Shown piece after piece: positions 7,437-17,539 of a DNA stretch of 64,000 nt. The position numbers and the translations under genes were made by a program. The notes below the pieces were generated by a model. It searched no databases and had not been told where the DNA came from. It saw nothing but the letters and a program-made list of their open reading frames with translations. The stretch comes from a virus (Duplodnaviria; Caudoviricetes). Positions within the stretch are counted from its first letter, which is position 1. Each line of letters opens with the position of its first letter. The stretch is from the IMG/VR virus record IMGVR_UViG_3300033121_002300, positions 1 to 64,000 of that record; one strand, given 5' to 3'.

Positions 7437-8037
7437 TAAATTTCATCAAAACTTAACCGATTCAGACGGTATTCATGAACCAAAAGGAATATCTACAGCA
7501 AACGCTGGATTTGTTTATGTTGCGAATGGTAATGGAGGTGGATCTTGGCAGTTATTAGATATTCCGGATTTATTGAATCCAAATATTGACTCTTTAAAAA
7601 ATTTAGATTACGTATCATTTTCAATTCTTACAATGATAGCTGAAAATACATTTGCTTTAGATACAGGAAACTGGAGAGCTAAATGTTATTCTCAATCAGC
7701 TGCAGGTAATATAACAACAACATCGTTGACCCCTGTACTTGCAACAGGAATGTCTAAGATACCTCCTGCTGGAACATATCTTTGCTTATTTATGACAGAT
7801 GTTACAAATAGCAATGCCGGAAGAATTGTAAAAATATCTTTATACAAAAATGATGCAATTTCTGGTAATTCAGAAAGAACCTTTGTAAATGGCAACGCAT
7901 CAGATCGCTCAACAGCAGTAACAATGGATATTATCTCTTGTAACGGAACAGATGAAGTAAGGGCAATGTGGAATGTAAGTGCTAATACAGGTACTATGGG
8001 AAATAGGATATTAGCTTTATTAAAGGTTGAACCATGA
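7429..8037 (+). CDS. putative tail fibre/receptor-binding protein
   Basis: IHEPKGISTANAGFVYVANGNGGGSW N-terminus; C-terminal C1q/BclA-like beta-sandwich pattern (GTYL..F.......ISLYKN...CNGTDEV). Confidence 0.5.
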   Translation: MGNKFHQNLTDSDGIHEPKGISTANAGFVYVANGNGGGSWQLLDIPDLLNPNIDSLKNLDYVSFSILTMIAENTFALDTGNWRAKCYSQSAAGNITTTSLTPVLATGMSKIPPAGTYLCLFMTDVTNSNAGRIVKISLYKNDAISGNSERTFVNGNASDRSTAVTMDIISCNGTDEVRAMWNVSANTGTMGNRILALLKVEP

Positions 8038-8849
8038 TAATAACATATCAAATAAATCAATTCAATAATGGAATAAATCTTGATAATCTTCAATTATCAA
8101 TAAAATCTAATCCTGGATTAGATAGTAAATATGCTCATTGCGGAGGAGAAAATGTTGGAACAGAAAATGAAATAATAAATATTCACTTCAATAACGAGTT
8201 GACTGAACAGGAATTATCTGATTTAGAACAAATTAGGTTAAATCATGATTCATCTCCATTAGTGTATGTATTGACTAATAAGCAGCAAGATCCTAGAGAA
8301 CTAGATTATGACATAATGGATTGCGTAAAAAAAAGAATATTAGGAACCGGAGACCATAAAGGAGAATTAAGAGAAATTGAATACTATAAAAATTACAATG
8401 TTCAAACAAATACATTTTCAAACTTAGCTGTAAAAGAAAGAAGAAGGTATATAAGGCAACCTATCACCGGATTAGTTATGTATAGACTAACCGATATTGA
8501 CTGGTATATGTCGAACGGAAGTATTGGTGTTTCTAAAAATAATATAATGAAAGTTTATTCATTTAATGAGGCTAGAATTGAAATGCAATCTAGGCGCTCA
8601 AACATAATTAATGATGTTGAAGCTTATTTACTTTATTATCAATCTCAAAATTATGGAGAGCAAGGATTAATGAACTCATTAACTCTTTTGGCTTCATTAA
8701 AGCCATATAAAGAATTATACATTGACAGCGTTGGTCAACCGTTGCTTGATGCTATAAATTCAAGTAATTATAATTTTATGGATCAGATTTTAAAAGATAC
8801 AATGTGTACGATGTTAACATACGATCCAAATGCAACGGATATTCCATAA
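8034..8849 (+). CDS. hypothetical protein, probably structural
   Basis: 271 aa, ATGA-coupled within the fibre module. Confidence 0.5.
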   Translation: MIITYQINQFNNGINLDNLQLSIKSNPGLDSKYAHCGGENVGTENEIINIHFNNELTEQELSDLEQIRLNHDSSPLVYVLTNKQQDPRELDYDIMDCVKKRILGTGDHKGELREIEYYKNYNVQTNTFSNLAVKERRRYIRQPITGLVMYRLTDIDWYMSNGSIGVSKNNIMKVYSFNEARIEMQSRRSNIINDVEAYLLYYQSQNYGEQGLMNSLTLLASLKPYKELYIDSVGQPLLDAINSSNYNFMDQILKDTMCTMLTYDPNATDIP

Positions 8850-9649
8850 TGTTAATTTTAAAACAAAAAAATATTAATTTAGTATTACCGGGTTCAGGTA
8901 CCTTGTTTCCTTATTATGCAGGATTGTATCATTACCTTACTGACTTTAATTTTAAAATAGATAAATTAATTGGGGTATCCGGCGGATCTGGAATGGGTGC
9001 AGCTATAGCTTCCGGTATAAAATCAGATGAGTTGAATAATATTTTAGAAAACTTAGATTTCCCAAAATTAAAAGATTTAAACTTAGATATATTTAATGGT
9101 TTTGGATTAATAAAAGGAGATGAGATACATTCCTTTTTAAAAGAAATTTTACCGAAAAATTTTTCCGACTTAAAGATACCATCAGTTTTTGTTACTACAA
9201 AAATAAGGACACAAGAAACTGTTTACTGGAATTATACTAATAGCAACGGAATTGATTTACCTTTAATAATAAGAGCCTCAATGAGTATCCCTTTTGTATT
9301 TAATTATGTGAAAATAAACAATGAAATTCATGGGGATGGTGGAATGAAAAGAAATAATCCAATATCTTTTTTTGGTAATACCAGTAAAACAATTTCATTT
9401 AAAACACTTCCATTTCAAGTTAAAGAAGAGCCTAGAAATTTTGGAGAATATTCCGGATGCATAGCAAATTGCCTAACATTTGACAATGAGGAAAATGATA
9501 TTAATAGCGCACCAAAAGCCAACTTAATTACAGTTGAAAGTCAATATAACAACATTGATTTTTCATTCAATAAAGAAATTATAAGAAATATGATAAGAGA
9601 TGGATACAACTCGGCTTACGAATATTTTAAAAGAAATCCATTTAAATAA
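8849..9649 (+). CDS. patatin-like phospholipase
   Basis: LVLPGSG oxyanion loop, GVSGG (GxSxG), IIRASMSIPFVF and DGG; start moved to the TAATG overlap at 8849. Confidence 0.9.
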   Translation: MLILKQKNINLVLPGSGTLFPYYAGLYHYLTDFNFKIDKLIGVSGGSGMGAAIASGIKSDELNNILENLDFPKLKDLNLDIFNGFGLIKGDEIHSFLKEILPKNFSDLKIPSVFVTTKIRTQETVYWNYTNSNGIDLPLIIRASMSIPFVFNYVKINNEIHGDGGMKRNNPISFFGNTSKTISFKTLPFQVKEEPRNFGEYSGCIANCLTFDNEENDINSAPKANLITVESQYNNIDFSFNKEIIRNMIRDGYNSAYEYFKRNPFK

Positions 9650-10819: not shown

Positions 10820-11733
10820 TGGTTAAAGTTCACGGTCAAGAAGAATCAAAAAGAAAAAAGAATAAATCGAAAGATAAAATAGAAGAAAAAAAAAATATAG
10901 AAAAATTTTCTGAGACTGAATCCAATGAAGAGGTAAAGTTAGAAAAAAAAAATAAGAGTGAAAATAAATTTTCTGAAGAAGAATTGAAAATAAAGACATC
11001 TATATATGATACATTGATAAGTTCTTCATATATAAAAAATTCAGGTTTACCGGGTGATATCTTTGATTCAATAGCAGAAGATATTGCTGAAAATTTAATT
11101 ACCGGATTAAAACAATCCGGATTTAATATAATTAATAAGGTTAAGTTAGAAGAAATTCAAAACACTTTACTGAAACTAAATAGCAATCCAATTGACAAAA
11201 CTAAAATAATAAAGGAATATCTTGATAAACAAGGTAATTATTTAATTTCAGTAATTAATGAATTATTTCAACATAGTCATAAATTCTATGAATTAGACTT
11301 CAATCAATTTGTTCCATTTGAAAAACCTGATTTAGTAATGAAAATGAAGGATGAAGATGATCAAATAGTAATAGCCAGTAATGAAGATAACACAAAGGGT
11401 TTATCAACCTTTTCTTTAATATCAACAATTACTGATATTATCATGCAAAAAAGAATAGCCTTCAATGTAGATGAAGAAACCGGTCAAATATTAGGAATCT
11501 GTTTCTGGAAAAATATAAAAAGTGAATCTTTAAATAAAAGACTTGAATCAGTGATTGAGTTGTTAGAAAAAAATAATAAAAATAAAAAAACATCTCCCAA
11601 TTCAATTAAAGCTAAACACCATTTAGACAAAATAACTGAAGATCAGTCTGAAAAAAGAGAACTTCTTGATGAGTTAATTAAAATAACAATTGATAGCATT
11701 AAAATTATTAAGGAAACAGAAAGTGAAGGATAA
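10819..11733 (+). CDS. hypothetical protein
   Basis: 304 aa; K/E-rich N-terminus; TAATG-coupled. Confidence 0.6.
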   Translation: MVKVHGQEESKRKKNKSKDKIEEKKNIEKFSETESNEEVKLEKKNKSENKFSEEELKIKTSIYDTLISSSYIKNSGLPGDIFDSIAEDIAENLITGLKQSGFNIINKVKLEEIQNTLLKLNSNPIDKTKIIKEYLDKQGNYLISVINELFQHSHKFYELDFNQFVPFEKPDLVMKMKDEDDQIVIASNEDNTKGLSTFSLISTITDIIMQKRIAFNVDEETGQILGICFWKNIKSESLNKRLESVIELLEKNNKNKKTSPNSIKAKHHLDKITEDQSEKRELLDELIKITIDSIKIIKETESEG

Positions 11734-14422
11734 ATTAAATCTTAGACCTTATCAAATAGAATGCGCTGAAAAAATAATACAGTCATATAATCAAGAAGAA
11801 CCGGGGGGAATTGTTTATATGGCCACAGGGCTAGGTAAAACAGTTCTTGCAAATGAAGTTATAAGTAGATTAAATGTAAAAACTTTAATATTAGTCCACA
11901 AAAATGAATTAGTAAATCAATTTATTCAAAAATTATTATTCTTTAATCCTGAAATATCATACGGAATAGTAAAAGCTGAAAAAAATTTACTTGGAAATAA
12001 AATAACAATAGCATCCATTCAAACCCTGTTAGGAGAAAGAAGACTTCAACAGGTGATTGATCATGGGCCATATGAATTAATAATAACCGATGAATGTTTT
12101 ATAGGCTCAACTTTAATTGACGGTAAGGCAATTAAAGATTTAAAAGTTGGAGATTATGTTAATTCATACAATCATAATACTGATAAAATTGAAAAAAAAC
12201 AAATTACATCAACATTTAAAAATAAAAGTAAAATTTTATTAAAAATAATAACAAGTAACGGAACCATTTACTCAACACCAAATCACCCATTTTGGAATGG
12301 TTACTATTATATTAAGGCTAAAAAACTAAAGAAAGGAGATTTCTTATATGAACAAAATATTTTGTCATCACTGCCAAGCGGAAACAAGTCTACAGCCACA
12401 TATAAAGAAAGTAAACTACGGAATAAGCGAACAAATGTACAAAGATCTAGGTTACGCTTATTGTTCAATAGAATGCCAAAAAATAATGCGAAAACAAATA
12501 AGATCTCAGAAAATGAGAGAAACAAATTTAAAAAGAAGGGATATTATTTCCGAAAGAATGAAAAAACAGAACCCAATGTTTATAGAAGAAATAAGGTTAA
12601 AATCAAAAGAATCTTTAAAAAACATAAAACACAAGCCTGTAATTCAAGGTGGAAATGGAAAACCTTCACCTATCCCTCAGCAAAAGCTGTGGGAAAAATT
12701 AGGAGAAGGATGGACAAAAGAATTTGTCGTGTCAAAGATAAAACAATATGGGGAACAGTACCCAAGTTGTTACAAAATAGATATAGCAAATCAATCTTTA
12801 ATGATAGCGGTAGAAGTAGATGGAGGGAGCCACAACTCATTCGCAAGGAAGCAACAGGACAAAAGAAAGGAACAATTACTCAAACAGTTAGGGTGGAAAG
12901 TATTAAGATTCTCAAATCGCCAAGTAACAGAGAATATAGACGAATGTGTCCAGACGGTTATGTCTATAATATAGAGGTGGAAGATAATAATAATTACTTC
13001 GTTAACAACATATTAGTTCATAATTGCCATCATTACTCTGGAAACGAATGGGCTTCAGTATTAAGTAAATTTAATGGATATAAACTCGGATTAACAGCAA
13101 CTCCAAATGGATTAGGTGAAAATGACGGTGAAGTTATATATAGATATACCATATTTGATGGTATAAAAAATAAATATTTATGTGACATAAAGGGCATTAA
13201 AGTAAATCTTGAAATAGATTTTAGTAAGGTTAAAGAATACAAAGGAGACTTTCAGGAAAAATCTCTTTGTGAACAAATGATGAAGCCAGAAAATATGGAA
13301 GAGACATATAAAGCCTGGGAAAAACATTGCCAAGATAGAAAAACAGCCGTTTTTTGTGTTAATGTAAAACACGCTCAAAGTTTAAATGAATTATTTAGGA
13401 ATAAAGGAGTGAAATCTGATGTCGTAATAGGTGAAACACCTTTAGAAGAAAGAGATATTCTGTATAATAAACTTGAATCAGGAGAAATAAAGGTGTTATT
13501 TTCTGTAAATGTAATGTCAGAAGGATTGGATTTACCGAGTTTGTCGGCAATATTAATGGCAAGACCTACTCTTTCAGAGACTTATTATATCCAAGCGGTA
13601 GGAAGAGCTTTGAGATTACACCCAAACAAGAAAAATGCCTTAATAATTGACCTAGTAGGAAACTCAGAGAAGTTCAGATTAATCCAACTCGGTATACTTT
13701 TTGGAAAAAAACCTAAAAAAGATAAGGAGGCTAAAGCTAAATTAAAAGATTTAGGATTAGAAATACCCGAAATACCAGAAGAAATAGATAGTGTATTAAG
13801 TCTAATTGCCAAAGAAGAAAATATATCACTGGAAAATACTCAAGATGGAAGAAAATTTGAATGGGTTGATGTTGATGGTAAGTTTGTTCTTACTATGGGA
13901 AATGATAAATTAGGCTTTCTTGTTATCGAAAAAGCAGGCGAAGACTTTAATTCTTGGAGAATAAAGAGATACTATAGCCAAAGTTGGAGAGATAAAATTG
14001 AGACATTAGTTGACGACCTGCCTTTTGATTGGTGTATAAGTATTGCAGAAAAAGAGGTTGAGAGATTTATCGAAGAAACAACTATTCCTCTTATATCAAG
14101 AGACTCAAATTGGAGAGATCTTGAACCTTCCTATAAGCAAATTGAACTGTTAAATGAATTGGGTTGTAAAGATATACCCAAAACAAGAGGTGATGCAACC
14201 TCGTTGATTGTTAAATATACAGTTAAACAAAAACTAAATGGATATAATGCCGCATTATCAGACCAGTCATCAATTAAAGCTCATGCAGCAATAATAAAGA
14301 TGCACAAGAACAATGAACTTAATGTTAAATTGGGTGACTTTGAACCCGATAAGCTATCAATAAATGAAGTGAATAGAATCAAATTCTTCCACTTCTACAA
14401 TCAAAATAAAGTTAAAAAATAA
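11723..14422 (+). CDS. superfamily 2 DExH helicase (type III Res/UvsW-like) with intein
   Basis: LRPYQ (Q motif), MATGLGKT, ITDE|CH after splicing, LTATP, SEGLDLP, YIQAVGRALR; likely GTG start at 11723. Confidence 0.9.
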   Translation: MKDKLNLRPYQIECAEKIIQSYNQEEPGGIVYMATGLGKTVLANEVISRLNVKTLILVHKNELVNQFIQKLLFFNPEISYGIVKAEKNLLGNKITIASIQTLLGERRLQQVIDHGPYELIITDECFIGSTLIDGKAIKDLKVGDYVNSYNHNTDKIEKKQITSTFKNKSKILLKIITSNGTIYSTPNHPFWNGYYYIKAKKLKKGDFLYEQNILSSLPSGNKSTATYKESKLRNKRTNVQRSRLRLLFNRMPKNNAKTNKISENERNKFKKKGYYFRKNEKTEPNVYRRNKVKIKRIFKKHKTQACNSRWKWKTFTYPSAKAVGKIRRRMDKRICRVKDKTIWGTVPKLLQNRYSKSIFNDSGRSRWREPQLIRKEATGQKKGTITQTVRVESIKILKSPSNREYRRMCPDGYVYNIEVEDNNNYFVNNILVHNCHHYSGNEWASVLSKFNGYKLGLTATPNGLGENDGEVIYRYTIFDGIKNKYLCDIKGIKVNLEIDFSKVKEYKGDFQEKSLCEQMMKPENMEETYKAWEKHCQDRKTAVFCVNVKHAQSLNELFRNKGVKSDVVIGETPLEERDILYNKLESGEIKVLFSVNVMSEGLDLPSLSAILMARPTLSETYYIQAVGRALRLHPNKKNALIIDLVGNSEKFRLIQLGILFGKKPKKDKEAKAKLKDLGLEIPEIPEEIDSVLSLIAKEENISLENTQDGRKFEWVDVDGKFVLTMGNDKLGFLVIEKAGEDFNSWRIKRYYSQSWRDKIETLVDDLPFDWCISIAEKEVERFIEETTIPLISRDSNWRDLEPSYKQIELLNELGCKDIPKTRGDATSLIVKYTVKQKLNGYNAALSDQSSIKAHAAIIKMHKNNELNVKLGDFEPDKLSINEVNRIKFFHFYNQNKVKK
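12095..13024 (+). mobile_element. 310 aa intein in helicase motif II
   Basis: CFIGSTLI (A), STPNHPF (B), VYNIEVEDNNNYFVNNILVHN|C (F/G); splicing restores DECH. Confidence 0.9.
12348..12974 (+). CDS. DUF559/Vsr-like endonuclease nested in the +1 frame of the helicase intein
   Basis: AAGGAG RBS upstream; N-terminal CHHC..CSIEC zinc finger; YKIDIA...IAVEVDGGSH...QDKRKEQLLKQLGWKVLRFSN. Confidence 0.85.
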   Translation: MNKIFCHHCQAETSLQPHIKKVNYGISEQMYKDLGYAYCSIECQKIMRKQIRSQKMRETNLKRRDIISERMKKQNPMFIEEIRLKSKESLKNIKHKPVIQGGNGKPSPIPQQKLWEKLGEGWTKEFVVSKIKQYGEQYPSCYKIDIANQSLMIAVEVDGGSHNSFARKQQDKRKEQLLKQLGWKVLRFSNRQVTENIDECVQTVMSII

Positions 14423-14447
14423 TATTATAAAAAAGGTAAAACAAAAA

Positions 14448-14924
14448 ATGCAAAATGAAAAAGAAAGAAGATCAGATGAAGAATCAGAAAATATTTCATC
14501 AGAAGTTATAGTTGCCATGAACGGACCTGCAATGGGAAAAATAACTGAAACAGTATTCAAAAATAAAGACGACATACCAGACTTTAAGGGCTCTAAAATA
14601 AATCCAGAAATTCAAAAACTATACACGGAAGCTCTACAGAAATGCATTAAAGGCTACGTTCAGACAGGTAAAAATCAAATCATAATCGTATATTCAGGGA
14701 TACAGGGGATTAAATTTGGAACAGGGGTCTATGCATCAGAACTTAATGAGGAGCAGAGTGAAATTTACATTGTAGAGAATATAATAAAAAAAGCCAAGGA
14801 TATGACGGTCAATGAAATTGTTCACGTAGCGAAAATAAATAAAGGAATAGTTGAAATGGATGGAATCCCATCTATGAAAATAAGGAAGTTCGGAAAAAAT
14901 AATTACAGAATACAGGAATTATAA
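14448..14924 (+). CDS. hypothetical protein
   Basis: 158 aa ORF, co-oriented with neighbours. Confidence 0.6.
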   Translation: MQNEKERRSDEESENISSEVIVAMNGPAMGKITETVFKNKDDIPDFKGSKINPEIQKLYTEALQKCIKGYVQTGKNQIIIVYSGIQGIKFGTGVYASELNEEQSEIYIVENIIKKAKDMTVNEIVHVAKINKGIVEMDGIPSMKIRKFGKNNYRIQEL

Positions 14925-14929
14925 GATAA

Positions 14930-15220
14930 ATGATTAAATACCTATCATCAATTTATTTTTCAAATAGAGAATTGCATGAGAAGTTTATTAAATTTATAGA
15001 TGAGAATGATTTTTCTCCAGAAAGTGATATTTTAATTTATCAAGAACAAACCAACTTAGTAGGCGGTCAATTTCCATCAGAATTAACTGTAACCTTTATC
15101 CATAAAGGAGCATTATATGTATGTTACATAGGTGGTAAATATAAAACAGGAGTAGTAATGGTTAAAATAACTAAATCAAATTTGTTCAAATTATTTAATG
15201 CAGGTAAATTAGATGGATAA
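14930..15220 (+). CDS. hypothetical protein
   Basis: 96 aa ORF. Confidence 0.55.
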   Translation: MIKYLSSIYFSNRELHEKFIKFIDENDFSPESDILIYQEQTNLVGGQFPSELTVTFIHKGALYVCYIGGKYKTGVVMVKITKSNLFKLFNAGKLDG

Positions 15221-15458
15221 AATCAATATTCTTAACCATCTATTTAATCTTTTTGTTAATAAATCAATACCAGAATATATCCTAATTAATTACATAAATA
15301 AATCTCATTCTTTTTATTTTCTGGAGCTTCAAGATTTTATATCAAACAACTTAAAGGAAGAGTTTAACTATCTAACCGGTTATGGAGTAATTGAATCCGT
15401 TGAATTACTGTATAAATCAGCGGTAGAAAACGGTAATATAGTGGAAGAGGGGATATAA
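15213..15458 (+). CDS. hypothetical protein
   Basis: 81 aa ORF, 8 nt overlap with the upstream gene. Confidence 0.55.
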   Translation: MDKINILNHLFNLFVNKSIPEYILINYINKSHSFYFLELQDFISNNLKEEFNYLTGYGVIESVELLYKSAVENGNIVEEGI

Positions 15459-15479
15459 GGTTAATTTAAAAGTATATTC

Positions 15480-15490
15480 CGGCATAAGTA
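15480..15490 (+). promoter_or_regulatory. YGGYATAAGTA motif, copy 1 (candidate phage promoter)
   Basis: Same motif at 24413-24423 and 24699-24709, each 31-49 nt upstream of an ATG. Confidence 0.5.
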
Positions 15491-15538
15491 TATTGAAGAG
15501 GAGAACTTCCTCTATTATATATAAAAAAGGAGAATATT

Positions 15539-15886
15539 ATGTCACTTCTAAAATCAAACTTTATAGGAAAAGGTAAACAAACTGCCCCAATTCAGGCCCC
15601 AGCTTTTGAAATGAACTTAAACCAAAATATATCAGGACACATAACTCAGGAGCTGTTAGCCCCAGGGGTAAATCCTGAAGATTCCAAGAGAAAAAAAATA
15701 GCAATGGCGGGGGCTGCCATTGCAGGCGGAGGGATTGTCTTTGGCTTTTTCAGCGAGCTAGGAAAAATAACAGCTAAAGCTGCGATAGGGGCAGCTGCTG
15801 GAGCTGCAAATTCAGTAAAAGAATATCTCCAAAAGATACAGTCCGAATCTACTGAAAAGAAGGAGGAAACTCCTGCGGGAAAGTAG
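15539..15886 (+). CDS. Gly/Ala-rich, probably membrane-associated protein (short form)
   Basis: AGGAG RBS; AMAGAAIAGGGIVFGFF and AAIGAAAGAA segments; ends GCG GGA AAG TAG. Confidence 0.7.
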   Translation: MSLLKSNFIGKGKQTAPIQAPAFEMNLNQNISGHITQELLAPGVNPEDSKRKKIAMAGAAIAGGGIVFGFFSELGKITAKAAIGAAAGAANSVKEYLQKIQSESTEKKEETPAGK

Positions 15887-16089
15887 CAGAGCCTTGTATT
15901 CTCGTAGCGGAAGAATACGCTTCACCTGAAGAAGATTCCTCCGTTACCATTCTTCAAGAAGTTGATCTTCAAGATCTTCAGGCATATGAAGCTCAACCTC
16001 TTAAAGAAAAAGAATGCAAGGAAAGCTCATTTTCCTTGTCCGAAGACAAAGAGAACGAGCTTTTGTTAAAGCTAAAAAAACTAAAATAA
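15877..16089 (+). other. candidate programmed -1 frameshift site and 68-codon extension
   Basis: G GGA AAG at 15877-83; AGGAGG 10 nt upstream; -1 frame open to TAA at 16087-89 with no usable start codon of its own. Confidence 0.65.
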
Positions 16090-16090
16090 A

Positions 16091-16123
16091 AAAATCACAT
16101 CACACTAGATGTGATTTTTTTAT
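16091..16123. terminator. bidirectional intrinsic terminator
   Basis: AAAAAATCACAT-cacactag-ATGTGATTTTTT directly after the -1 frame stop. Confidence 0.8.
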
Positions 16124-16166
16124 TTAACTATTTCATATTTACAAAAAGATTAGGAGAGATAATAAG

Positions 16167-16640
16167 ATGAAATACAGAATCCATTCATATCCTATAGTTC
16201 GGGTATCCATAAATGTCGAGGCTGATAATCCACAACAGGCGATGGATAAAGCATTAGCTTCGTTGGACTTTAATGATGTCTTTAATAAAGAAGAAGCGGA
16301 AGCTCAAGAGCATTTAGTTGTATGCTTCGCAGATGAAATGTCCGGATACGGATGTGTGGATGAAGATGATTGCGAGGACGGAATTATTGAACATTCCGTT
16401 GAGCAGAATTATAGAGGTAGTAACTCAATATCAATAAATGAAAACAAAATAAGAAGCCATACTGAAAAGAAAAAATCGCTAGAAAATTTAATTATTGAAT
16501 CAAAGGAATCTAATGACATAAAGGTTGGTATAGTTTTACTAAGTGAATCGCCTTTCAATGAATTTATAAATAACCTAAAAAAATTAGGTTATAAAGTAAA
16601 AAGAGAAGGCGATATATTCAAGTTATATAATGAGGAATAA
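16167..16640 (+). CDS. hypothetical protein
   Basis: AGGAG RBS; 157 aa. Confidence 0.6.
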   Translation: MKYRIHSYPIVRVSINVEADNPQQAMDKALASLDFNDVFNKEEAEAQEHLVVCFADEMSGYGCVDEDDCEDGIIEHSVEQNYRGSNSISINENKIRSHTEKKKSLENLIIESKESNDIKVGIVLLSESPFNEFINNLKKLGYKVKREGDIFKLYNEE

Positions 16641-16655
16641 GTAAAAGAGAGTCTT

Positions 16656-17144
16656 ATGAAAAAACTAGATTTGGTTTCGAGAATAATAATAGCCAAAGAA
16701 ATAAACAGAAGAAAGAAAGAATTCAAGTTCATGCAAAGAAAATTGGAAAAGAATTTCCCTAAAGAAAAGATACCATTTCCTGAAAACCCCTCACCGGAAA
16801 ACATAATAAATTATGGCATTTCTAAATTTTATAAAGAAAGAATAGTAAACAGAGATAGAGAAATGCATGTAAATAATATAAGAAAATTATGGAAAGAAAT
16901 AAGCACACTTCAAGCACTTGCTCAGATTCAAAAACCTTATATTTTTTACGTACTTGAATATAATAATAAAAAATATGTATTAACTCCAGATGAAGGAAAT
17001 AAGATTGAATCAAAAATATCATCAAAAGAAAAATTAGATTATTACGATCACAGCTTATTAGAAAAAAGAATAATGTACGATGAAGAATTTTTATCTAAAC
17101 TAAATTGGTATACTAATTTACCAATATTAGAAAAGATATTTTAA
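16656..17144 (+). CDS. hypothetical protein
   Basis: 162 aa, basic. Confidence 0.55.
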   Translation: MKKLDLVSRIIIAKEINRRKKEFKFMQRKLEKNFPKEKIPFPENPSPENIINYGISKFYKERIVNRDREMHVNNIRKLWKEISTLQALAQIQKPYIFYVLEYNNKKYVLTPDEGNKIESKISSKEKLDYYDHSLLEKRIMYDEEFLSKLNWYTNLPILEKIF

Positions 17145-17170
17145 GAATGTAAAAAGGGATAAGTACTTTA

Positions 17171-17539
17171 ATGTTTAATGTTGATAATTTTTATTTAACC
17201 ATCTTGGATAGACAAACCCTTAAGTTTAAAATAAACATAACTGATGGATACGGAAATATTCATAAATTCAACCCATCAAATCAGTTATCAGGTAGAATAA
17301 AAGAATTAATTAAGAATGATAAACTAAATGAATACCAGATTTTAAAAAAGTTAAATACAAAAATTCAAATAGAAATAAATCTAATGGTAGAAAAAATGAA
17401 TAAAGAACAACTTCAGGATCTTGAAAGAGAGAAAGAGTTCCGTGATAGACATTATGAAGAGCCTGATAATTCGGATTATTACTGCCGGGTTGATAATTAC
17501 AATGAGGTAGATGATACGGAGACTTCCGATGAACAATAA
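17171..17539 (+). CDS. hypothetical protein
   Basis: 122 aa with an acidic tail. Confidence 0.55.
   Translation: MFNVDNFYLTILDRQTLKFKINITDGYGNIHKFNPSNQLSGRIKELIKNDKLNEYQILKKLNTKIQIEINLMVEKMNKEQLQDLEREKEFRDRHYEEPDNSDYYCRVDNYNEVDDTETSDEQ

Follow-up and report, generated by a model that had tools for sequence, protein, structure and literature searches.

A candidate -1 ribosomal frameshift signal of the lambda G-T type in a small accessory gene of an uncultured wastewater phage

A small plus-strand gene of an uncultured wastewater phage ends with the slippery heptamer G_GGA_AAG placed directly in front of its TAG stop codon, and the -1 reading frame continues from this point for 68 codons up to an intrinsic terminator. 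This extension is, or recently was, coding as the continuation of the upstream ORF of 115 amino acids. A real -1 slippage on the heptamer, yielding a second and longer isoform of the protein, is the reading that we favor, and we assign to it a probability of roughly 0.55. A -1 shift with two isoforms had already been proposed in a preliminary description of this DNA, and the analysis presented here partly supports that interpretation.

Genomic context and anatomy of the cassette

The gene is located on an 82,083-bp virus record of IMG/VR, which is a metagenome assembly; the window, meaning the whole stretch of DNA that was analyzed, comprises the first 64 kb of this record. The contig has a G+C content of 32% and a completeness of about 45% as estimated with CheckV. 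It encodes a ribonucleotide reductase, a helicase with an intein and a protein of 1991 amino acids with RNA polymerase beta-type matches. A Shine-Dalgarno (SD) core precedes the start codon in 61 of the 88 genes (about 70%), the stop codons are distributed as TAA 63, TAG 13 and TGA 12, and no tRNA genes were found in the contig. Exact contigs of 151 to 207 nt from wastewater metatranscriptome and activated-sludge runs match the positions 15376-15526, 15691-15841 and 16107-16313, which indicates that the phage or a near-identical strain is present in such samples; the exact 151-nt metatranscriptome contigs (15376-15526 and 15691-15841) do not demonstrate transcription.

The gene under study belongs to a series of small ORFans on the plus strand that follows the helicase gene, next to replication genes. 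A search of Pfam with the 115-aa ORF gave nothing above threshold and a search of PHROG gave no match. Together with the possession of its own promoter-terminator cassette among small ORFans, this bears out the earlier view that the signal is located outside the context of a tail chaperone.

Overlapping frames were also observed elsewhere in this part of the window. Inside the intein of the helicase ORF (11690-14422) an ORF of 208 amino acids is present in another frame of the plus strand (12348-12974). It matches DUF559/Vsr-like endonucleases with an E value of 3e-13, and the intein frame stays open across it and reads there as Lys/Arg-rich filler. Further upstream, the ORF 8034-8849 and the ORF of a patatin-like phospholipase (8804-9649, GTG start) overlap by 46 nt in the -1 frame, and an in-phase T_TTA_AAA at 8789 is located near the overlap within 8034-9649. 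This arrangement may be an ordinary gene overlap.

The features of the cassette are compiled in Table 1. Reading of the sequence confirmed most of the anatomy given in the preliminary description: the ORF ends with GCG GGA AAG TAG, so that the heptamer lies immediately 5' of the stop codon, the hexamer AGGAGG is found 10 nt upstream of the heptamer, and a terminator is positioned at the stop of the -1 frame, with its hairpin overlapping the TAA.

Table 1. Coordinates of the cassette features, given as positions of the window
Feature	Position	Strand	Remarks
Promoter-associated motif GGCATAAGTA	15481-15490	+	common to two other one-gene cassettes
Ribosome binding site AAGGAG	15527-15532	+	6 nt 5' of the ATG, read from the sequence
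Zero-frame ORF, 115 aa	15539-15886	+	ATG start, TAG stop; sequence reading
Shine-Dalgarno-like AGGAGG inside the ORF	15861-15866	+	10-nt spacer to the heptamer
Slippery heptamer G_GGA_AAG	15877-15883	+	X_XXY_YYZ phase; TAG (15884-86) directly after
-1 extension, 68 codons and TAA	15883-16089	+	codons 15883-16086, TAA 16087-89
Stable RNA hairpin within the extension	15904-15947	+	-19.2 kcal/mol, z -6.1, 0/200 shuffles
Intrinsic terminator	16084-16125	+	18-bp stem, flanked by A and T runs

The promoter-associated motif occurs in the window in three exact copies of GGYATAAGTA, at 15481, 24414 and 24700. Each copy is located 40-58 nt upstream of an ATG and heads a one-gene cassette which ends in a terminator, and the motif may represent a phage-specific promoter element. 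In the two sister cassettes the terminator follows about 10 nt past the stop codon, and neither contains a long 3' UTR. The locus described here fits this layout only if translation in the -1 frame reaches 16089; otherwise the transcript would carry an untranslated tail of 198 nt. The terminator hairpin is highly stable (-19.6 kcal/mol, z -9.3), and its 5' arm contains the TAA of the extension.

Coding character of the -1 frame and predicted products

The -1 frame is closed by a TGA at 15853-55, and the overlap between the two frames is therefore restricted to 9 codons. From stop to stop (15856-16086) the -1 frame comprises 77 codons, of which codon 60 is the first ATG, GTG or TTG, and no SD could be placed ahead of any of the rare start codons in this frame. 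The position of the first start codon means that the -1 frame is without a usable start, as had been stated before. For the analysis of the coding character we used a codon-usage log-odds score for which the remaining genes of the genome served as the training set. In the -1 frame the extension reached 0.307 per codon, compared with 0.347 ± 0.095 for real gene windows of 68 codons, whereas the same region scored -0.76 and -0.44 in the other two frames. Stop-free shuffles of the extension gave 0.005 ± 0.088, and none of 2000 reached the observed value. Pure chance is thus excluded for the extension, and its characterization as 68 natural-looking acidic codons was confirmed by the gene-like score and by a net charge of -9. 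This phage-like codon usage, in combination with the terminator placement known from the sister cassettes, indicates that the extension is, or until recently was, coding and joined to the ORF. In annotation, probable coding sequence should be assumed for the 200 nt that follow the called gene.

Beyond the TAG the zero frame contains only TAG stops for about 60 codons. A use of TAG as a sense codon was considered and rejected because of the poor zero-frame score past the TAG (-0.76), the normal stop usage and the lack of tRNA genes.

Relatives were searched for with both parts of the putative gene. The 115-aa ORF (P0001) retrieved only itself from 5.8 billion clustered proteins, and a HMMER search against 1.84 billion representatives resulted in itself and three giant Gly/Ala repeat proteins, which were rejected as relatives because these are low-complexity matches. 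The extension had no match in longer proteins. There was also no match in a tblastn search of 50,697 phage records with P0001, the extension and the body of the leader-bearing site-1 gene, nor in a blastn search of 14400-17200 against phages. Structural look-alikes from the ESM Atlas all scored under 0.9, and the genome contains no paralogs of the gene. Searches of viral contigs with P0001, the next gene, the helicase C-terminus and the site-2 alignment revealed no related locus, and DNA patterns placed across the heptamer (with variable run length) and inside the ORF had no match among viral and metagenome contigs, in scans which may leave out the window's own record. As neither part has a homolog, conservation of the heptamer or of the frame arrangement cannot be shown.

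The 115-aa form is basic with a pI of 9.4, and its N-terminal 45 residues are disordered. A hydrophobic Gly/Ala segment is located at residues 54-72 (KD19 1.80), with a Lys/Arg cluster just before it. A single-sequence AlphaFold model shows a long helix from residue 46 to 105 at low confidence (pLDDT 60). The acidic extension has a terminal amphipathic helix; it is modeled as mostly disordered with a helix at residues 54-67, again at low confidence (pLDDT about 60), and both single-sequence models were used only for secondary structure. The earlier assignment as a Gly/Ala membrane-type protein stands insofar as one hydrophobic segment is present, but this segment and the low-confidence helix are its entire basis. 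As a working guess, the product could be a small membrane-anchored host-interaction protein, of which the long isoform would carry an additional acidic tail.

Candidate slippage signals and alternative readings of the locus

In the reading that we favor, the locus represents a one-gene expression cassette, consisting of promoter motif, ribosome binding site, ORF and terminator, and its mRNA would be translated into two products. The majority of ribosomes would translate 115 codons and terminate at the TAG, which would result in a small basic protein whose single hydrophobic helix is rich in Gly/Ala. Some ribosomes would slip back by one base on G_GGA_AAG, where the glycine tRNA would re-pair with GGG instead of GGA and the lysine tRNA with AAA instead of AAG. 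Their translation would proceed through the 68 codons of the -1 frame and yield an isoform of 183 amino acids, in which PAGK is joined to VAEPC and which carries an acidic, mostly disordered tail with a short amphipathic helix at its end. The slippage would be promoted by pairing of the 3' end of the 16S rRNA with the AGGAGG located 10 nt upstream, as in dnaX, and by slow decoding of the adjacent stop codon. With the adjacent stop codon waiting in the A site, a single tRNA could also slip on A_AAG. The anatomy of the sequence, the coding nature of the extension and the limits of the cassette are shown by the data, whereas the occurrence of slippage, its efficiency and a function for either isoform are predictions.

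Among the -1 motifs measured in E. coli, G_GGA_AAG belongs to the three with the highest efficiency (PMC4066793; PMC5009743), and its presence in the correct phase confirmed the earlier designation as a slippery heptamer of the lambda type. SD-like elements stimulate -1 shifts from a position 9-14 nt upstream, with a distance of 10 nt in the case of dnaX (PMC5009743). The AGGAGG hexamer fits this published range, in agreement with the earlier suggestion that its spacing is that of a known stimulator, and can be regarded as a candidate for such an element. SD-like stimulators on the 5' side occur in dnaX and in about half of the IS elements and are not obligatory. Inside same-strand genes AGGAGG was found 18 times in 78 kb, which gives a chance of about 0.2% that a copy lies 8-14 nt ahead of any particular site. 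Its occurrence at the canonical spacing points to selection of the signal and not to mere accident. The hexamer is also able to pair with CTCCT at 15870-74, forming a small hairpin of -7.4 kcal/mol (z -2.0).

Stem-loops or pseudoknots on the 3' side, usually about 5-9 nt past the heptamer, are common elements of such sites and likewise not obligatory. The preliminary description had included a stem of GTATTCT (15896-902) and AGAATAC (15912-18) as a downstream element. This stem is present at the described distance of 12 nt, but it is not significant (-9.4 kcal/mol, z -1.6, matched by 14 of 200 shuffles) and is displaced by the stronger hairpin at 15904-15947. The stronger hairpin is significant but begins 20 nt past the heptamer, outside the usual spacing; it is too distant to be counted as a stimulator, and the site thus has no canonical 3' stimulator. 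For a zero-frame stop directly past the shift site there is a precedent in the reversed dnaX arrangement of some bacteria (PMC5009743).

The combination of signals was also compared with the rest of the contig. The 88 ORFs contain 403 in-phase heptamers of the type X_XXY_YYZ, and only in this gene is a heptamer located beside the stop codon together with a long -1 frame that has no start. Among open frames of at least 60 codons, the ORF and its extension form the only pair on the coding strand which resembles a split gene. In-phase X_XXA_AAG is not avoided in the genome (22 seen versus 27.8 ± 4.7 expected), and at the frequency of this genome an efficient in-phase heptamer has a chance of about 0.8% to fall into a window of 9 codons. 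A second apparent candidate at genome position 77778 (A_AAT_TTT) was rejected, because it is simply the next gene with its own ATG and SD.

Two further sites on the contig, both beyond the window, contain an in-phase A_AAA_AAG in front of a -1 frame. At genome position 81347-81723 (L007:17347-17723) a leader ends after 13 codons, and the body of the gene lies in the -1 frame, where a stretch of 43 codons contains no start, so that a -1 shift at the heptamer (81370-76) is needed. In two homologs (P0007 and P0008, about 53% identity) leader and body are encoded in one frame, with EKKASK across the junction. The DNA of the relative L008 reads GAA AAA AAG GCA, whereas this contig reads GAA AAA AAG CTT; the comparison indicates that the contig lacks one base directly behind a heptamer that was slippery already and that slippage by -1 would bring back the ancestral protein. 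This site would therefore be either a rescued real deletion or an error. At the other site, genome position 64476-64912 (L007:476-912), an upstream ORF of 27 codons leads through the heptamer (64511-17) in the -1 frame into a body of 130 amino acids; as this body has its own ATG four codons past the heptamer, a frameshift is not required there. The evidence from 81347-81723 cuts both ways. The homologs in one frame demonstrate that single bases are indeed lost at sites of this kind in the present sequence and keep a one-base deletion a live rival at the site studied here; on the other hand, the site suggests that the phage lives with, or uses, slippage of lysine tRNA. If the slippage at the heptamer described here is real, it would suggest, together with the two A_AAA_AAG sites, that some phages tolerate or exploit this type of slippage repeatedly. 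A more far-reaching idea appears doubtful to us, namely that three or more unrelated genes of the phage (the present one and those at 64511-17 and 81370-76) depend on -1 slippage of lysine tRNA at X_XXA_AAG, which would then form a genome-wide layer of expression. Such a layer might be tuned by the modification state of the host tRNA-Lys, which is known to alter lambda G-T frameshifting (PMC3296357).

The alternative readings of the locus differ in how they account for the open -1 frame. A real one-base deletion in this lineage, located between 15856 and 15883 in a single gene of about 183-184 codons, is conceivable, although we consider it unlikely. The base would most likely have been lost from a short run of A or G; the product of 115 amino acids would then be a truncated form, and the tail would no longer be made, or would be made only by incidental compensating slippage on the heptamer. 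The coding-type codon usage that is kept in the extension is expected soon after such a mutation, and the overlap window contains AAAA (15855-58) as well as GGG and AAA runs. Insertion of an extra A or G in the runs of the heptamer, or of an extra A at 15855-58, results in one uninterrupted ORF. Furthermore, loss of one base in GGGAAAAG or GGGGAAAG by itself creates the in-phase heptamer and the adjacent TAG, and for this reason the heptamer is not fully independent evidence for slippage. Compared with its homologs, the site 81370-76 of this contig shows precisely this kind of loss, and indels rescued by low-level frameshifting were described by Atkins et al. (PMC5009743). However, the deletion requires that three features coincide, namely an in-phase heptamer (about 0.8%), an AGGAGG at the canonical spacing (about 0.2%) and the adjacent stop, and a loss within the runs of the heptamer accounts for the heptamer and the stop but not for the SD.

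An assembly or sequencing error, with a true sequence that is one base longer and forms a single ORF, would have the same appearance. The contig is a metagenome assembly, the public contigs on the region (four runs) cover 15691-15841 and 16107-16313 and none of them 15842-16106, and the two other apparent -1 sites are located at runs of seven A. An error is nevertheless improbable, since the runs at the site itself are only 3 nt long, while ORFs of up to 1991 codons are intact on a contig with 64 A/T runs of 8-10 nt elsewhere, and no other ORF that is split without a start was found on it. In addition, all of the 302 sampled 31-letter words from 14400-17400 are present in an independent Logan assembly, which possibly derives from the same sample. 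Still less probable is the interpretation of 15887-16083 as a non-coding 3' UTR with a structured RNA, in which the -1 frame is open by chance or belongs to a separate gene with a non-canonical start. The highly significant hairpin at 15904-15947 is in line with a structured RNA, and 17% of 120 spurious open frames inside genes match the score of the extension. Against this, an open frame of 68 codons arises by chance in only about 0.5% of cases at this base composition, the stop-free shuffles never attained its codon score, and the sister cassettes have no comparable 3' UTR; a separate gene would have to begin without an ATG, GTG or TTG before codon 60 and without an SD before the rare starts.

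Comparison with known frameshift systems

The mechanism which we propose for the locus is classical, and the instance described here is a lead from a single metagenomic contig without relatives, not an established recoding event. Its signals can be compared with several known systems. In lambda, the G-T frameshift needs little beyond the heptamer, whereas in the present gene an SD-like element and an adjacent stop accompany it. The present gene also differs from gpG/gpGT in that it has no match to a chaperone family and is not located between the genes for the major tail protein and the tape measure. Both systems share the identical heptamer near the end of the upstream ORF and a C-terminally extended fusion beside a short form (PMC5009743), the latter being predicted from sequence in our case.

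With E. coli dnaX the locus has in common a heptamer of the X_XXA_AAG class on which a lysine tRNA slips and an SD-like element 10 nt on the 5' side (PMC5009743). The reversed dnaX of some bacteria resembles it further in the stop directly past the shift site and in a longer product that results from the shift (PMC5009743). In contrast, the strong stem-loop of dnaX is found at the canonical distance on the 3' side, whereas the strong hairpin of the phage gene is 20 nt away; the proteins are unrelated, and frameshifting in dnaX is conserved and proven, whereas here it is predicted from one contig. The locus is also similar to 'savior indel' frameshifting, in which one base is missing beside a shift-prone run and a minority of the ribosomes still reads through (PMC5009743). 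The genome site 81370-76 looks alike, whereas for the site studied here no in-frame ancestor or relative is known.

A -1 shift near the end of an ORF that adds a C-terminal extension to part of the protein is also found in cdd of Bacillus subtilis. According to Mejlhede et al. 1999, this shift reportedly takes place at CGA AAG with an upstream SD-like stimulator. In gene 10A/10B of T7 and T3, a -1 shift near the ORF end likewise extends the C terminus of a fraction of the product (PMC5009743). These cases involve other heptamers and other proteins than the phage gene, and they were shown experimentally. If the signal described here is real, an accessory gene of the membrane type, equipped with its own promoter and terminator, would join the short list of phage -1 frameshifts outside virion assembly, and it would provide a clean case of stimulation by an SD and an adjacent stop in which no canonical 3' structure takes part.
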